Source: Escherichia phage JLBYU24 | Sequence record: OK272476.1 | Length of the DNA stretch: 64,000 nt | Strand: one strand, 5' to 3' | Shown: in pieces, positions 6,613-63,207 of the stretch | How positions within the stretch are numbered: the stretch's first letter is position 1 | How the letters are laid out: every line of letters starts with the position of its first letter | The notes under the pieces: model-generated | Database searches by the model: none | Seen by the model: only the letters and a program-made list of their open reading frames with translations | Told to the model about the DNA's origin: nothing | Made by a program: the position numbers and the translations under genes

Positions 6613-7131
6613 TTAAGCTTTACGAGGAGAAGCATAACGAGTGATTTCAGATTCTTCAACAACCCGGAAGTCACCTAAAAATACAATATTGTATAGCTTT
6701 TTACCGTCTTCAACCCATTGGTCTGTGATGAAGCCACACATCCTATCAGTTTTACTTGGACCAGCGAAATCATCAATATAATCGAATTCTTCATCAGTTA
6801 CAAATTCAACGCCTTTACACAACGCCCATTTAAATTGTGTATTAGACTCAGTGGATTCAACTTCTTCAACAGAAGCAAAATGAGAGCTAACACGAGTTTC
6901 CAGAAATTTAGGACTTACGTAAGCGTACTGAGTTTCAGTTTTTCCAGAACTAGGAATGATTCGAACTTTAACTTCTTTAACACGACCAGTACCATTAGTA
7001 CGAAGTCCTACCACTTCAACTAGACGACCTGCAGCTTTAGAACGAGATGCAGACGATACACGCTTAATTTCACCGATAGTAATCATAATTTTTCTCTCTT
7101 TGTTGTTAAGATTTATACTCCGCAGGACCAT
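6613..7131 (-). CDS. motB: MotB-like DNA-binding protein
   Basis: position after cef-like ORF; probable true start MITIGEIK at ~7086 giving ~157 aa. Confidence 0.5.
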   Translation of the reverse strand: MVLRSINLNNKERKIMITIGEIKRVSSASRSKAAGRLVEVVGLRTNGTGRVKEVKVRIIPSSGKTETQYAYVSPKFLETRVSSHFASVEEVESTESNTQFKWALCKGVEFVTDEEFDYIDDFAGPSKTDRMCGFITDQWVEDGKKLYNIVFLGDFRVVEESEITRYASPRKA

Positions 7132-7159
7132 TATACTCTGGTCCCAAGAGTTTGTAAAC
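7130..7159 (-). promoter_or_regulatory. T4-type early promoter
   Basis: plus attata 7130-7135, gtaaac 7154-7159, 18-nt spacer. Confidence 0.5.
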
Positions 7160-7596
7160 TAGCTTACACGAACATTAATCACTGCGCTGCGAGGAACTAC
7201 AGAGTACTCTCCAGCATGAACTACGTTCAGAAGTTCAACACCATCTTCAATCCACTGATCAGTCACCCATCCACCCACAGGATTCGCGAATGGACGACGA
7301 ATATAAACTGCCTTACACAGCAGATCAGTTGGATCTTCAGGTTTTTCAATTTCTGTCAATAGACTAAAATCTTTTTCATAAATAATAAGCGGTGATACCA
7401 TTCCATAATAGTTTCTAATTTCAATATACATCATACCGATAAGAATTCCGCTATTAACACTAATAACAGTAAAAGGATATCCGCCAGTTAAACCAAGAAG
7501 TTCACAAAACTTATTATGAGCTGTATTAGACAGTACCGAAAAATTCTTAATTTCATCAAATTTTTTCAATTGATAAACAGCATTATTTTTAATCAT
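7159..7596 (-). CDS. MotB-family C-terminal-domain paralog
   Basis: C-terminal GGWVTDQWIEDGVELLNVVHAGEYSVVP matches motif of the two neighbouring ORFs. Confidence 0.45.
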   Translation of the reverse strand: MIKNNAVYQLKKFDEIKNFSVLSNTAHNKFCELLGLTGGYPFTVISVNSGILIGMMYIEIRNYYGMVSPLIIYEKDFSLLTEIEKPEDPTDLLCKAVYIRRPFANPVGGWVTDQWIEDGVELLNVVHAGEYSVVPRSAVINVRVS

Positions 7597-20032: not shown

Positions 20033-21458
20033 AAAATTTTAATTCATTTGCCAAAGCATCTAACTGAGCTCGAGCTGATTCGTTTCTTTGATAGCGATTC
20101 TGTTCAGCCTGAATCTGTTGTGAACCTGCTACTTCACTCACTTCAGTTGGAGTAGAATCTTGTTCAATTTCTACCCATTTCTGATTTCCCTTTTGAACAC
20201 CCATCAAAAACTTATTCCACTTATTCTTATCGCCATATCGTGATTTGATTTGCTTAATGAGTTGTTGTTCAGCAGCTGCTAGCTCCTCGGTTTCAATGAC
20301 CGCAAGCATAAAATCAGCTGTTGCTGGAAGACCAGCAGATTCTGCAATATCGCTCATGTTAACATCAGAAGAGTCCCAAGCTTGTTTACCGACCTGTGCT
20401 GCAGTCCAAAGAACAGTTTCGGTTTCAACAGCAAGAGCACGCAATTCCTCTGCAATAGCTTTAACAGTTGTGTAACTATTTTCTGAATAAACTCGGATGC
20501 GACAAGATTTACAAATACCTAGATAGTCGACAATAATGATTGTTGGAACAAAATTCTTTTTGAGCTTCAATTCATTCAAGAGAGACCTGAATGTATTAGC
20601 GTCTGCTCCACCAGTAGGATACTGTTTAACGATTAAACGACCGAGGGTAGATTTCTCACGCCATTTTTCCATTTTTCCTTTATACTCGGCGTAAGAAATA
20701 TGTCCATCATCAATATCGTCAAGAGAAACATCGAGCATATTAGCATCAATACGTTTAGCACAGACTTCTTCGGCCATTTCCATGGAGATATAAAGAACGT
20801 TATGACCAAGCTGTAAATAATCCGCTGCTAATGAACACAATCCTAATGACTTACCAACGTTAACGCCAGCCATTAAAACGTTCAGTGTTCCTGTTTCAGC
20901 TCCGCCTTTTGTAATTTTATTCAAAATACGAAGTTTAAATGGAACTTTACGAGCTTTATTCATATAAGATAGCCAGCGTGCTTCGTAGTCATCCATCCAA
21001 TCATGACCAACGTAGCTATCAAATGAAATTGATAATGCTTGGCGCATGATGTCAGGAATAGCACCAACATCCGGCATTTTCTTATTTCGTTTTTCCGGAG
21101 GAAGCTCAGCATTAGTTTGAATTTCGATTATTTTAGACGTAGCATTAAACATCGCCCTTTGCTGAACATATTTTTCTGTTTCTTTTACTAACCAGCTGTG
21201 GTCTTCCGGAGAATCAGCCAGTTTTGAAATAAGTGTTTTTACACCAGAATATTCTGTTTCAGTAAATGAACTATTTTCTAATGCAACATTTAACGCATTA
21301 ATAGATGGAACGCTATGGTACTCATTAACATGAGATTTAATTAATTTGAATGTATTTTTAGCTGGACCACTTTCAAAATATTCTGAATCCATATATGGCC
21401 AAACTTTTGAAAAATAAGCTTGATCAAATATAAGATGAGAAAGAATAATTTCTACCAC
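20031..21458 (-). CDS. 41: replicative DnaB-like helicase gp41
   Basis: 475 aa; Walker A GVNVGKS; length matches T4 gp41. Confidence 0.93.
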   Translation of the reverse strand: MVEIILSHLIFDQAYFSKVWPYMDSEYFESGPAKNTFKLIKSHVNEYHSVPSINALNVALENSSFTETEYSGVKTLISKLADSPEDHSWLVKETEKYVQQRAMFNATSKIIEIQTNAELPPEKRNKKMPDVGAIPDIMRQALSISFDSYVGHDWMDDYEARWLSYMNKARKVPFKLRILNKITKGGAETGTLNVLMAGVNVGKSLGLCSLAADYLQLGHNVLYISMEMAEEVCAKRIDANMLDVSLDDIDDGHISYAEYKGKMEKWREKSTLGRLIVKQYPTGGADANTFRSLLNELKLKKNFVPTIIIVDYLGICKSCRIRVYSENSYTTVKAIAEELRALAVETETVLWTAAQVGKQAWDSSDVNMSDIAESAGLPATADFMLAVIETEELAAAEQQLIKQIKSRYGDKNKWNKFLMGVQKGNQKWVEIEQDSTPTEVSEVAGSQQIQAEQNRYQRNESARAQLDALANELKF

Positions 21459-31971: not shown

Positions 31972-33654
31972 TTAAACCATTATAGTAAACCGACCAACTT
32001 TCTTCATTTGAAGATGCTGACCATATGCTTGTGGGTCATGGTCTCTATGCGAAATAACAAAAACATTAGTATTTTTTAAACTATCTAAAATAGTTGAAAT
32101 AGCTTTTACACCTTCAACATCAGTTGCTGAATCAAAAACTTCATCGAGAATTAGTGTGTTTATTTTAACACCTGAAACTTTTTCAGCAATATCACGCCAA
32201 GTAAATAAAAGAGCAATATCAATTCGTGCTTTTTCACCTTGACTAAATGAAGCATAACTAAAATCTTCACGACCACGGGATTTAATTGTCTCATTAAATT
32301 CTTCATCTAATGTAAACACATAATCCGCTTCCATTATTTTAAGATAATGGTTAATTTGCTTATTAAATAATGGAATGTACTTTTTAATAATAGCACCTTT
32401 AATACCAGAATCTTTGAGCATATCAGTCAAAATTCCTCGGTGGTATTTTTCCATTACTAAATTAGTTTTTGTCTTAACAATTTTATCAAGTTCTTCTTGA
32501 AGCAGTGCTATTTCATCAGCATGGTCAATAAACTCAGAAGATGCTTTTTCTATAGCTGCTTTAACTTTTTTAGCTTTATCTACCGTCGTGATTAGAGATT
32601 GCTTTTTATTGCGAATATCATTTGCCAACGACTGCTGGGTTTTAATATTATCTCGGTATTCATCAACAAGAACTTTTAAATTATCACGGTGCGTTGAAAG
32701 CTGTTCAAATGAATGCGTACATTCAGAAACTTTATCTTTAATTTTAGAAACAACTTTATCGCCGGAACTTAATTGTGACAAACAGGTTGGACATAATCCA
32801 CCTTCGTGATACATATTAATGACTTTATTATACGAGTCAATTTTTGATTTAATTAAAACTGCTTCTTGACCGATTTTATTAAATGCATCAGTCGGGTCTT
32901 CATCCAAAACAATATTAACTAATCTTTCATTAGCTTCTTCTATTTCCGATTTTAGCGTTCTAGCTTCTTTTGCCAAATCATCATACATATTTTGTAGACG
33001 AGTAAGGTTGTCACCCGTTAATTTTTTCTGGCGTTCAACGTTATCATTATATATTTTAATTTGTTGGATAATACTATCTTTTTTAACATCAAGCACTTGG
33101 TTTTGTGAATTTAATTCACGTATTAGTGCTTTATTAAGCTTATCCATTTCAGCTAATGTTCCTACCTCAAGCAGGTCTTCCACAAGCTTTCTTCGCGCAG
33201 GGGTCGACAAACCCATGAAAGGGGTATACCCTGCTGTACCAAGGACAACAATCTGCTTGAAACTGGCATATGACATTCCGATAAGCTGTTCAAATTCTGC
33301 TTGGAAATCTTTACTGCTGGCAGATTCATTAAGACGTGTACCGTTAACGGTGATTTCGAAAACGTTTGGTTTTTGTCCTCTTTTGATATAGTACTTTTTC
33401 TCATCATATTCCATCCACAGTTCAACTAAAAGTTCTTTCTTATTTGTGCTGTTTATTAATTGACCTTTCTTTACATCACGAAATGGCTTGCCAAAAAGCC
33501 CAAACGTGATGGCTTCTAACATAGTAGACTTACCACCGCCATTTCGTCCAGTAATAAGAGTTTTTTGAACCTTATCTAATTGAATGTCAATAGGATTTCC
33601 ACCTACTGACATTATATTTTGATACCTAACTCGGTTTAGTTTAAAATTCTTCAC
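31972..33654 (-). CDS. 46: recombination endonuclease subunit gp46 (Rad50/SbcC-like)
   Basis: 560 aa; Walker A GRNGGGKST; central coiled coil; CPTC zinc hook; Walker B LILDEVFD. Confidence 0.92.
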   Translation of the reverse strand: MKNFKLNRVRYQNIMSVGGNPIDIQLDKVQKTLITGRNGGGKSTMLEAITFGLFGKPFRDVKKGQLINSTNKKELLVELWMEYDEKKYYIKRGQKPNVFEITVNGTRLNESASSKDFQAEFEQLIGMSYASFKQIVVLGTAGYTPFMGLSTPARRKLVEDLLEVGTLAEMDKLNKALIRELNSQNQVLDVKKDSIIQQIKIYNDNVERQKKLTGDNLTRLQNMYDDLAKEARTLKSEIEEANERLVNIVLDEDPTDAFNKIGQEAVLIKSKIDSYNKVINMYHEGGLCPTCLSQLSSGDKVVSKIKDKVSECTHSFEQLSTHRDNLKVLVDEYRDNIKTQQSLANDIRNKKQSLITTVDKAKKVKAAIEKASSEFIDHADEIALLQEELDKIVKTKTNLVMEKYHRGILTDMLKDSGIKGAIIKKYIPLFNKQINHYLKIMEADYVFTLDEEFNETIKSRGREDFSYASFSQGEKARIDIALLFTWRDIAEKVSGVKINTLILDEVFDSATDVEGVKAISTILDSLKNTNVFVISHRDHDPQAYGQHLQMKKVGRFTIMV

Positions 33655-43956: not shown

Positions 43957-44079
43957 ACCCCATCTCCATATCAATTAAGTCATTTATCGTCGGTTCATTA
44001 TATACTGTTTCTTCATCAGTGTAAACCGGTTCTTCCGGCTCTGGCTCTACTGTTTCCCATCTAGCCGCCCACCAAGGTT

Positions 44080-44400
44080 TTATAGCGTAATCCATTCTCG
44101 TACTGTCTGAGTTACTACACGTTCACGGGGCTCGACTAGTTCAACAGTCGGAACTGCATAATACCAGTCAGAATGATAAGAACCTGACCGAGATTCATTT
44201 ACAGCCACATGTACATTATGTTTTGGACTAAAGTAAACACACTGACGATATTGACATTTACCATCTTGCACCCAGTCTTCTATTTCGACAGGTTTAAGAT
44301 AATCGGAAAAATCGAAATCATAGTTTTCCGAAAATGCATCATGGTCTTCAATGATTTCGCTCAGAACTGCATCAACATCTAATTTATTTTCAATAGTCAT
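44080..44400 (-). CDS. hypothetical protein
   Basis: 106-aa ORF. Confidence 0.4.
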   Translation of the reverse strand: MTIENKLDVDAVLSEIIEDHDAFSENYDFDFSDYLKPVEIEDWVQDGKCQYRQCVYFSPKHNVHVAVNESRSGSYHSDWYYAVPTVELVEPRERVVTQTVREWITL

Positions 44401-60490: not shown

Positions 60491-60750
60491 ATACTTGCTT
60501 CTTTGAGTTTCGTTTTAGCAATAGTTAACTGATCGAGGCTTTCGGCGTAATTCTTCGCGAGTTCATCATCTTCACAGCTATCAAATGCTTCCCAAAATTC
60601 ATCGTATAAAGCATCAAAGATAAGTCCTAAACGAACTTCAGCGTCTTTAATAGCATTTACTTTACCGATTTTTTCGTCGGTATGCGGCTTATAACCTTTA
60701 ATGTCTTCAATCATATTTGACTTCCTCACCAGTACATAAATCATATTCAA
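60448..60750 (-). CDS. hypothetical protein
   Basis: 100-aa ORF. Confidence 0.4.
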
Positions 60751-60928
60751 CTAAACGAATAGGTTCATGAATGCCATATCCCTGAACAGAAATTTCTGTC
60801 GTAGGATAAATTCCATCAATATCACCCATATTCCACGCTTCGTTAAATTGCTGTTCGCCTGAATTACTAAACCACTCGGCGAAAGCATTTAGCACATCTT
60901 TAGAACCTTCAATAATTATCTTTGCCAT
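60707..60928 (-). CDS. hypothetical protein
   Basis: 73-aa ORF. Confidence 0.4.
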   Translation of the reverse strand: MAKIIIEGSKDVLNAFAEWFSNSGEQQFNEAWNMGDIDGIYPTTEISVQGYGIHEPIRLVEYDLCTGEEVKYD

Positions 60929-61290
60929 TATAAGCTCTCAGTAAAGGTACGAGCAATAACGTCGCGCTGCTGTTCCGGAGTCAGAGAATTAAAGCGAACT
61001 GCATAACCTGATACACGGATGGTCAGCTGCGGATATTTTTCCGGATGCTTAACTGCATCTTCCAGAGTTTCACGACGCAGAACGTTAACGTTCAGGTGTT
61101 GACCACCTTCAATTTTAACTGTAGGCTGTGGCTCAATTTCAATTTCACGGGCATGCAAACCGTAGAAAATTTCTGGGTCTACAAAAGAGTCCTCTTTAAA
61201 GGTTTTAGAGACAATAATTCGTGCTTGAATACCATCTTCAAAATAAATAGTACCTTTATGTGTGCCTTCAAGAATTTGATATGCTTTCAT
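60928..61290 (-). CDS. autonomous glycyl radical cofactor (GrcA/YfiD-like)
   Basis: 120 aa; C-terminus [60 protein letters not shown] with RVSGYAV glycyl-radical motif. Confidence 0.8.
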
Positions 61291-61297
61291 ATAAACC

Positions 61298-61627
61298 TCA
61301 ATTAGAAAATAAATTTATCCAAGATTGTTCTTTAATTAAAAATGGCTCAGAATCATATGCCATTAAACTTTGGGTGATTAGTCCTTTAAAAGGCCCATCA
61401 ATAAATTCCATGGTAAAATATGGAATTTTATTCATTAGCCGTGCATTAGGAGCAGTGCACAAAACTCTGCATCCTTTGAATACGCCTTTTTGTAATTTGT
61501 ATTGCTTGGGATAAAATTCGCTTAAAATGTTATTATTTGCCAAAATTTCAAAATGATTTACCAATTTATTTTTAATAGTTTTTGGCGAAAAATAGAGATA
61601 TTCGAAAAGCTGTGTGTCTGTCATCAT
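61298..61627 (-). CDS. hypothetical protein
   Basis: ~109 aa from MMTDTQ; ATGATGA overlap with upstream stop. Confidence 0.4.
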
Positions 61628-62166
61628 TGCATTCCGATTACGAAAAACTGTGGACGAGTAATACCACCAATGCAACATTTACTATTACAGCAGTAGTGTA
61701 CAGTGTCAATATGGACGCTATAAATCTTATCCATATCAGGAGATTTGACAGGCTCATCAATTATATACAAAATTCGCGAAAGCGATAAACCTCTGAACTT
61801 ACTTCCTTTATTACCAATAAAACTGCGCACAGAATCAGTAAATAAACGAAAACGTATATCATCATTAGAATAACGTGAAAATTCCTTTTTAATGTTATTT
61901 GCAGAAATTTTAGCGTAAGCTGAAGTATTAGAAAGAACAATAACTGTTCCGCCATCATACAGCCAATTAGCAGCAAAGTTAGTCACAGCAATTGATTTAC
62001 CGGATTGACGTCCACCATCTAGTCGAAGTGTACAATATTCTTTAAATAAATGCGACGAATCAGGTACATAAAATCCACTATTACAAATTTCTTCTACTCT
62101 AGCATCAGAATGGTGTGTAAAAGCATTCATCAGGGATAGATAAGGACCAGTTAAAAATGTTCTCAT
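61624..62166 (-). CDS. small P-loop protein
   Basis: Walker A-like GGRQSGKS; Walker B-like LYIIDEP; likely start MRTFLTG at 62166. Confidence 0.45.
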   Translation of the reverse strand: MRTFLTGPYLSLMNAFTHHSDARVEEICNSGFYVPDSSHLFKEYCTLRLDGGRQSGKSIAVTNFAANWLYDGGTVIVLSNTSAYAKISANNIKKEFSRYSNDDIRFRLFTDSVRSFIGNKGSKFRGLSLSRILYIIDEPVKSPDMDKIYSVHIDTVHYCCNSKCCIGGITRPQFFVIGMQ

Positions 62167-62307
62167 TTTATTCTCTCTAAATTTGGGCCATTCCGTGGCG
62201 CATGAATTGTCCATTTCTGTATTTACCCATTACCGCACTCAGGCTCGACCTTATCACAGGTTGGCGGGAATCCCTCACAGAATCATGAGGTCCAGCTTGT
62301 TCCCATA

Positions 62308-62781
62308 TTATTTGAACGATTTAACGTACTGAATAGAACCTTTACTATTCACAAAGGCAATTTTACCATTTTTATTATACATGGTAGCAGTACGTTGATA
62401 ACCATAAGTTTGTTTACCAGATTGATAACCAACTAATGCGAAATTATCTTCGCCCATTTTATTCTGTTTAGCGCGAATGCGTTCATGACCATGTGCCATA
62501 AGAACCTTAGCATCACCAGTTGCAATGGATCGACGAGTTTTTTCATCTTCAACTGTATTAACAAAGTCGTCAAATGAATCAAATTTAGCATGAGATTTAT
62601 TATACAATTTTCCATCTACTGCATAATTATATCCCTGTACATCCATCTCAACTTCTGTACCATCATCCAATACAGCAGTGATTTTTTGACCTTTTTTAAA
62701 TTTCAAAAGATCAGTAAAAGATTCAGCAATAATTTGAGAATTAATAGCTGCTTCAGTGATAAATTCTTGATATGTTTTCAT
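62308..62781 (-). CDS. capsid internal protein with capsid-targeting sequence
   Basis: 157 aa; N-terminus MKTYQEFITEA resembles T4 internal-protein CTS; basic. Confidence 0.65.
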   Translation of the reverse strand: MKTYQEFITEAAINSQIIAESFTDLLKFKKGQKITAVLDDGTEVEMDVQGYNYAVDGKLYNKSHAKFDSFDDFVNTVEDEKTRRSIATGDAKVLMAHGHERIRAKQNKMGEDNFALVGYQSGKQTYGYQRTATMYNKNGKIAFVNSKGSIQYVKSFK

Positions 62782-62790
62782 ATGTTTCCT

Positions 62791-63207
62791 TTAAATGTAA
62801 ATATTTTTACCGTAATACTTATACCAATGTGGTTTCATTAAAATTTTTTCATCAAGTCGTTGTTGACTCAATTTAATAGCTGATTTGCATGGATTATAAT
62901 CATTTTTCCATTCTACTGGAATATCGCTGATGTCAGGAACTTCAGTATCTTTTATACTGAACCCGCGTTTTAAGCATTCCGTTATAATGTCTAATTGACG
63001 CTTTCGCAAAAATTCTAACTTATCGTAAAAGAACGTAACATGACCAGAACCTAAAATAAACTCGGAAGATATTTTAAAATCTTTAACGCGCTTACCGTTT
63101 GCCACATGCTTACGAACTATACCAAAAACACGCGGCAATTCACGGTATTCTGCGATTAAATGTTGATCAGCAAGTTCAGATACTAAAGTCAAATTAATAC
63201 GAGTCAT
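62791..63207 (-). CDS. denV: endonuclease V (pyrimidine dimer DNA glycosylase)
   Basis: 138 aa; [17 protein letters not shown]...[10 protein letters not shown] matches remembered T4 DenV. Confidence 0.93.

Follow-up and report, generated by a model that had tools for sequence, protein, structure and literature searches.

Two described proteins, bacteriophage T4 Y06I and Escherichia coli YfiD (GrcA), receive a glycyl radical from pyruvate formate-lyase (PFL)-activase and restore the activity of PFL that has been cleaved by O2 (Wagner et al., 2001, as recounted in PMC8683613 and PMC13450708). The published radical glycine of PflB itself is Gly734 (PMC8683613). A sequence-only reading of the DNA considered here had noted that T4 is reported to carry a YfiD-like spare-part protein, and rightly so: the gene is vs.6 (NP_049730), the activity of its product being reported in that same text (PMC8683613). 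Exchange of DNA between a phage gene and its host counterpart has been described for other genes, with psbA and psbD of T4-like cyanophages showing patchy G+C content and intragenic host–phage recombination (Zeidner, 2005; Sullivan et al., 2006, PMC1484495). Here, we describe the vs.6 counterpart in Escherichia phage JLBYU24, contained in a stretch of 64,000 nucleotides of sequence record OK272476.1 (hereafter, the window, meaning this whole stretch). For T4, both this gene and what its product does biochemically are already known, and no new function emerges from the window; the account below concerns mainly the origin of the DNA.

A single open reading frame (ORF) on the minus strand, 60928..61290, encodes 120 amino acids and coincides exactly with the extent of the feature first noted. 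The encoded protein matches the Pfam Gly_radical domain (PF01228) at residues 61–101 (66.8 bits, E = 2.8e-18; cutoff, 22.2 bits), phrog_1209 over residues 1–120 (1.2e-62), and T4 Vs.6 (NP_049730) at 119 of 120 residues. Furthermore, the gene occupies its place in the vs.7-vs.6-vs.5 array as in T4 and KMB22, with a vs.7-like gene upstream and a vs.5-like gene downstream, so that both the full-length match and the conserved array position put this GrcA-like spare-part gene in the T4 vs.6 orthologous group (phrog_1209). Its nucleotide sequence is 100% identical in the Tequatrovirus phages TH09, JLBYU31, and KMB22, and more than 700 phage records contain a megablast-level match (approximately 85% identity or better). 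Overall, this Tequatrovirus gene is very probably orthologous to T4 vs.6/Y06I and encodes an autonomous glycyl-radical cofactor of 14 kDa, with recurrent conversion of its radical domain by host grcA. The PHROGs v4 label for phrog_1209 is still "unknown function," despite the characterization of T4 Y06I in 2001, which amounts to a database gap, and in many GenBank phage records the gene appears as a "hypothetical protein" or under the misleading names "pyruvate formate-lyase" and "2-ketobutyrate formate-lyase."

Among PDB entries, the protein best matches GrcA (6OWR), followed by the final ~63 residues of PflB (1H16 and others), with residues 58–120 homologous to PflB 697–759—that is, to the C-terminal glycyl-radical domain of PflB (and TdcE), the part that a spare-part protein replaces. 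Unlike PflB and TdcE, the phage protein is small and stand-alone, containing no cysteine in its 120 residues and having neither the catalytic body nor the Cys-Cys pair. It shares its small, stand-alone form and its RVSGYAV motif with E. coli GrcA. In alignments with the C-termini of GrcA (6OWR) and PflB (1H16 and others), the motif R92-V-S-G95-Y-A-V falls on Gly102 of GrcA and Gly734 of PflB, and Gly95 (codon at 61006..61008, minus strand) is accordingly the predicted radical glycine. The NCBIfam model for the GrcA equivalog (TIGR04365) scores the protein at 153.3 bits, below the cutoff of 170 and compared with 234 for E. coli GrcA, because the N-terminal half is diverged. By the TIGR04365 measure, the protein belongs to a GrcA-like phage family (phrog_1209) and is not a bacterial GrcA equivalog.

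The gene is tightly packed among its neighbors. A GAGG Shine–Dalgarno sequence, read from the DNA at 61296..61299 (minus strand), lies 5 nt upstream of the ATG and overlaps the TGA stop of the vs.7-like gene (61298..61678, minus strand), and the TAA stop overlaps the ATG of the 73-residue downstream gene (60707..60928, minus strand) as TAATG. A scan for promoters and terminators in this region yielded no signal exceeding that expected from shuffled sequence and no convincing promoter between the genes. There is no room upstream for a promoter of its own; therefore, the gene is read within the early vs gene array, and its translation appears from this layout to be coupled within that AT-rich array. 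In this it is unlike E. coli grcA, which stands at the ung-grcA-eamB locus. T4 vs.6 has the same length (363 nt), the same site between vs.7 and vs.5, and the same mosaic structure as the gene described here, but differs in having His73 in place of Arg73, tract haplotype T219/C282 in place of T219/A282 (see below), and a downstream vs.5 of 58 rather than 73 residues.

At the DNA level, the gene is a mosaic. Residues 61–120 are identical to E. coli GrcA 68–127 at all 60 positions, in agreement with the claim of the sequence-only reading that the C-terminal ~60 residues match GrcA/YfiD. Fitting two breakpoints by likelihood to the alignment with K-12 grcA (lnL −64 vs. −105) delimits a host-derived conversion tract of E. 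coli grcA sequence at gene nt 179–353 (codons 60/61–118; 60938..61112, minus strand), with identity of 171/175 (97.7%) inside and 47.7% outside, a nucleotide alignment of the kind that had been proposed as a check and that proved decisive. The closest allele, that of E. coli strain 503025, agrees with the tract at 173 of 175 positions with an exact run of 124 nt, so that over the radical domain the gene is like E. coli grcA at 171–173 of 175 nt. Gene nt 179–363 match grcA with 96–97% identity in each of 5,426 complete E. coli genomes (blastn), the sequence upstream of nt 179 having no blastn match in the same 5,426 genomes. Indeed, when the whole 64-kb window was compared by megablast with these genomes, the tract was the sole match. 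At the nucleotide level, pflB and tdcE are only 75–80% identical to the gene and are therefore not the donors.

Base composition changes with the tract, in agreement with the earlier observation of a GC-richer 3′ half, for which a GC profile had been suggested as a check. The 185-nt 3′ segment has a GC content of 0.465, a value reached by 0.2% of same-length windows in the 64 kb (mean of the window, 0.345; sd, 0.039), compared with 0.348 in the 5′ half; GC at third codon positions (GC3) is 0.38 vs. 0.22. At the 185-nt scale, GC peaks at 7112–7343, 20256–20462, 33158–33352, and 43985–44220 equal that of the tract; considered as candidates for host-like DNA, these four were rejected, as they lie in ordinary phage ORFs (e.g., of 453 and 546 residues) and have no E. 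coli match. Synonymous divergence (dS) from E. coli grcA is 0.07–0.17 for the host-derived 3′ part and 0.12–0.17 for the tract of the window itself, compared with more than 1.5 for the phage lineages without such a tract, and is below the yardsticks of 0.40 for E. coli–Citrobacter and 1.1 for E. coli–Salmonella; thus, the tract nests inside Escherichia. What is found is near-identity, including synonymous sites, between two breakpoints with diverged homologous flanks, and a donor-like base composition unlike that of the recipient genome, as expected of a tract passed from host to phage. A sign of amelioration in the tract, suggested by six of seven phage-specific changes being GC-to-AT, was discarded: three of these fall in the terminal codons, which are ancestral to the phages, and two are at positions polymorphic in E. 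coli. The direction of change within tracts is mixed, with no clear GC-to-AT bias.

On both sides, the tract is bordered by sequence of phage type. The 5′ half (codons 1–59; 61113..61290, minus strand; GC 0.35, GC3 0.22) encodes a diverged homolog of the GrcA N-terminal region. A comparison by hhalign of a profile of phage N-terminal halves from seven lineages with a profile of bacterial GrcA N-terminal halves aligned the N-terminal 60 residues of the phage protein with the N-terminal 67 of GrcA at a probability of 93.6% (E = 2.1e-7; 29% identity over 49 columns), and dN/dS of 0.12–0.31 among T4-like genera indicates purifying selection on this half. The two N-terminal halves are thus only distantly homologous, that of the phage being seven residues shorter and, as had been remarked of its first ~50 residues, different from that of GrcA (29% identity in the profile alignment). 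At the other end (60928..60937, minus strand), codons 118–120 read GAG AGC TTA before the stop. In other phages, the corresponding codons are GAG AGT CTA or ATA (Slopekvirus, Cronuts, and Mosigvirus), with CTA or TTG in relatives, whereas all bacteria compared have GAA AGC CTG; Slopekvirus and the Cronobacter phage have phage-type last codons and no host-like tract. Since phage-type sequence of the same gene lies on both sides of the tract, the host DNA is an internal patch, which, judged from the sequence, is the probable trace that homologous gene conversion left in a grcA homolog already present in the phage. The proposal that a captured host segment had been fused to a phage N-terminus is thus upheld in part: the 3′ portion is recently host-derived (dS 0.07–0.17), but the N-terminal half is itself GrcA-homologous (E = 2.1e-7) and the last codons are of phage type. 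The GAGAG at the 3′ end of the gene may serve as the ribosome-binding site of the downstream gene, and the phage-type end may be constrained by this GAGAG together with the overlapping downstream start.

Comparison with the tracts of other phages infecting E. coli indicates that conversion occurred more than once. E. coli alleles can be distinguished by their haplotypes at gene nt 219 and 282, namely C/C in K-12, T/C in BL21, and T/A in strain 503025. The tract of Mosigvirus F27 matches the K-12 allele at 175/175 positions; those of ZCEC15 and the IMG/VR loci L162 and L165 match the BL21 allele at 175/175, and that of T4 matches the same BL21 (E. coli B) allele at 174/175; and those of IMG/VR locus L163 and of the window match the 503025 allele at 174/175 and 173/175, respectively. 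These haplotypes are scattered over Tequatrovirus and Mosigvirus in a manner incongruent with the relationships of the 5′ half. The genealogy of the tract thus departs from that of the gene and different donor alleles are present, as recurrence predicts, the E. coli part of this argument depending on few sites, namely the two polymorphic positions nt 219 and 282, where parallel mutation or phage–phage recombination could explain a part of the pattern. Between phage phiD1 and the window, the 5′ half has 0/178 differences and the 3′ half 7/185 (Fisher p = 0.015), and the phage database records at least 99% identical to the window number 87 for the 5′ half and only 3 for the 3′ half. In T4 vs.6 (L003, 3558–3920), the tract carries a nonsynonymous change, G218A (R73H), with respect to E. 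coli GrcA and all other phages examined. The Mosigvirus KAW3E185 gene (L094, 478–663) has seven differences in its tract and T219/T282, as in a cryptic Escherichia sp. (L004). No closer allele was found for it among the 5,426 E. coli genomes, the best match being 95.1% over the 186-nt query and at least 6 nt off in the 175-nt tract; the tract may come from an Escherichia other than E. coli or may be of greater age.

The clearest case of recurrence is provided by Jiaodavirus, phages of Klebsiella and Raoultella, for which seven genes were available from five GenBank phages and two metagenome contigs (34 and 166 kb). The five GenBank phages encode identical proteins, and the seven genes differ from one another at 0–7 nt in the 5′ half and 4–18 nt in the tract, the GC content of which is 0.52–0.57 vs. 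0.36 in the 5′ half. The chromosomal grcA allele of Klebsiella type that is matched varies from one phage to another, as do the end points, and the exact runs measure 155 and 158 nt; the Klebsiella-group donor contigs came from a degenerate-pattern scan of metagenomes and were recognized by their GrcA N-termini rather than by species names. An eighth case, IMG/VR locus L185, matches allele L149 at 169 of 175 positions with an exact run of 140 nt. Residues 77 and 81 are Leu and Glu in the Jiaodavirus tracts, a Klebsiella-specific pair, and Glu and Lys in the E. coli phages. The patches of related phages appear to stem from different host alleles and host species, and thus from more than one capture event; taken together, the allele patterns in E. 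coli and Klebsiella/Raoultella phages point to recurrent host-to-phage conversion.

Other lineages carry the gene in unconverted form. Slopekvirus, Pseudotevenvirus (Cronobacter), Karamvirus, T5-like phages, vB_Eco_SAP, and JK32 encode nearly the same C-terminal protein with 70–86% DNA identity to any bacterial grcA, exact runs of at most 29 nt, and saturated synonymous divergence; for the first four of these, DNA identity is 74–86%. Therefore, the tract is not the product of selection alone. The genes are also unconverted in phages that infect E. coli, namely T5 and the E. coli/Shigella phages vB_Eco_SAP and JK32, and it follows that host matching by conversion is not required to carry the gene. 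In a sample of 80 IMG/VR loci (78 informative), host-like tracts occur in only six of E. coli type and one of Klebsiella type; the process is thus lineage-restricted and not universal. Slopekvirus K41P2 (L086) and the IMG/VR loci L176 and L177 have the Klebsiella-type Leu77/Glu81 and an intermediate GC content of 0.46–0.49, but in DNA they are only approximately 85% identical to bacterial alleles of any kind, and these genes of Klebsiella-infecting Slopekvirus could represent a much older, decayed conversion. Loci L228–L238, IMG/VR "viral" contigs found with the phage protein, have PflB-type C-termini (…QDVITRTFTQSM) and a host-like GC content of ~0.50; rather than spare-part genes of phages, these seem to be pflB of bacteria, on contigs that flank prophages or were misclassified.

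These lineages bear directly on the notion that nothing was transferred and that extreme purifying selection, together with codon or mRNA selection, keeps the radical-domain DNA identical to that of the host. High conservation of the radical domain across phage and bacterial homologs speaks for it, but Slopekvirus and the Cronobacter phage, although their protein sequence is the same or almost so, are only 83–86% identical in DNA, with dS above 1; exact runs of 124–175 nt exist; and the tract in the window is specifically E. coli-like (dS 0.12), and neither like that of Citrobacter (0.40) nor like that of Salmonella (1.1). The comparison of synonymous sites already contradicts this notion, which is scarcely credible. 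That transfer ran the other way, with bacteria obtaining the 3′ part of grcA from phages, is extremely improbable as well: sequence identity by itself has no direction, but the composition of the tract is host-like and not phage-like, bacterial grcA stands at a conserved ung-grcA-eamB locus, and its two halves have diverged in step with each other from genus to genus, from which it follows that the direction was from host to phage; each phage tract, moreover, nests among the alleles of its own host genus.

There remain one alternative regarding the history of the gene and one regarding its role. According to the former, the 3′ end of E. coli grcA was fused to an unrelated phage ORF in one ancient illegitimate capture followed by ordinary mutation, as the sharp 5′ breakpoint at nt 178/179 in all Tequatrovirus and Mosigvirus genes examined and the GC step at the tract would suggest. 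This is already contradicted, and distinctly improbable, given that the phage N-terminal half is homologous to that of GrcA, that the phage-type terminal codons make both flanks of the tract phage sequence, that orthologs in other genera have the same N-terminal half without host-like DNA, that closely related phages differ in the host allele to which their tracts correspond exactly, and that near-identical phages vary more in the 3′ half than in the 5′ half. According to the latter, the same gene would serve infection in another way, for example by titrating PflA or blocking PflB in the manner of a decoy, or by assisting the phage anaerobic ribonucleotide reductase (NrdD). A role in nucleotide metabolism was proposed on the basis of the common Gly_radical domain (Nolan et al., 2006), and the phage N-terminal half is strongly unlike that of GrcA, the corresponding region of YfiD influencing radical installation. 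Such a role nevertheless seems unlikely, since the C-terminal 60 residues are identical to those of GrcA and are not NrdD-like, PFL activity was reportedly reconstituted in vitro by T4 Y06I (PMC8683613), and the exact host GrcA sequence has been retained, as functional replacement would require.

Recurrent conversion of a resident gene and rescue of PFL can be combined in the following proposal. T4-like phages would be long-standing carriers of their own diverged grcA homolog, an internal 175-nt tract of which—almost the whole glycyl-radical domain—would have been overwritten by homologous recombination with chromosomal E. coli grcA. The tract runs from the start of the conserved EGGQHLNV block to a point ~10 nt short of the stop, which is almost exactly the extent of phage–host nucleotide homology. 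Strong constraint on this domain presumably preserves enough DNA homology to allow the phage recombination system to use fragments of host grcA as donors; recombination of the T4 UvsX type with host DNA fragments is the presumed mechanism. Near-perfect homology after one conversion would make further conversion easier, and repeated conversion would keep the phage protein identical to the radical domain of a recently used host, a match that may be selected for or simply tolerated. As for function, installation of the radical by PFL-activase and rescue of O2-cleaved PFL are carried over from T4 Y06I, one residue apart from the protein described here. By this analogy, host PflA (PFL-activase) would install the radical on Gly95; the activated protein would dock onto host PFL that has lost its own C-terminal radical domain to cleavage by O2, restoring activity; and the rescued PFL would maintain fermentative energy and acetyl-CoA supply in the infected cell.

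Like cyanophage psbA and psbD, vs.6 is a host-derived metabolic gene that exchanges segments with host copies, and the kind of process is the same; the gene, the hosts, and the habitat are different, and, unlike psbA/psbD, vs.6 has a single well-delimited tract, exact runs of up to 175 nt, and a donor identifiable at the level of the allele, with only host-to-phage transfer seen. It may be regarded as the enterobacterial counterpart of the psbA story. No description of the DNA-level vs.6/grcA mosaic or of its recurrence was found in the literature searched (Miller et al., 2003, and Wagner et al., 2001, lay outside its reach), and recurrent conversion of the phage gene by host DNA, resolved to the allele, may be an unreported detail of modest interest. 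It would provide a clean case in which a strictly lytic phage that destroys the host chromosome has repeatedly copied a piece of that chromosome into a homologous gene, and T4 with E. coli would offer a tractable system for the rates and homology requirements of host-to-phage gene conversion. A broader proposition, for and against which we find the balance about even, is that vs.6 is a natural sink for DNA of the host in virulent T4-like phages that otherwise contain none: the constrained domain would keep homology, host grcA would be copied repeatedly, and the spare part would be matched to the PflB and PflA of the current host (Glu77/Lys81 for E. coli and Leu77/Glu81 for Klebsiella), leaving an allele-level record of the recent host. 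If this holds, the vs.6 tract would be usable for host assignment of T4-like contigs, and might serve as a short sequence marker of the recent host species or strain of T4-like phages.

Two further ORFs were observed near the array. A vs.8-like ORF (61624–62214, minus strand; 196 residues as listed; phrog_1488) contains a Walker-A-like GGRQSGKS sequence and has a weak match (2e-5) to phrog_2, the terminase large subunit; judging by this motif, it may be an uncharacterized P-loop NTPase. Between the vs.8-like gene and denV (62791–63207) lies a 157-residue ORF (62308–62781, minus strand) that begins with MKTYQEFITEA, a start that we take to resemble the capsid-targeting leader of T4 internal proteins. 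In T4, the order is denV-ipII-ipIII-e, and the 157-residue ORF looks like a variable internal-protein locus.
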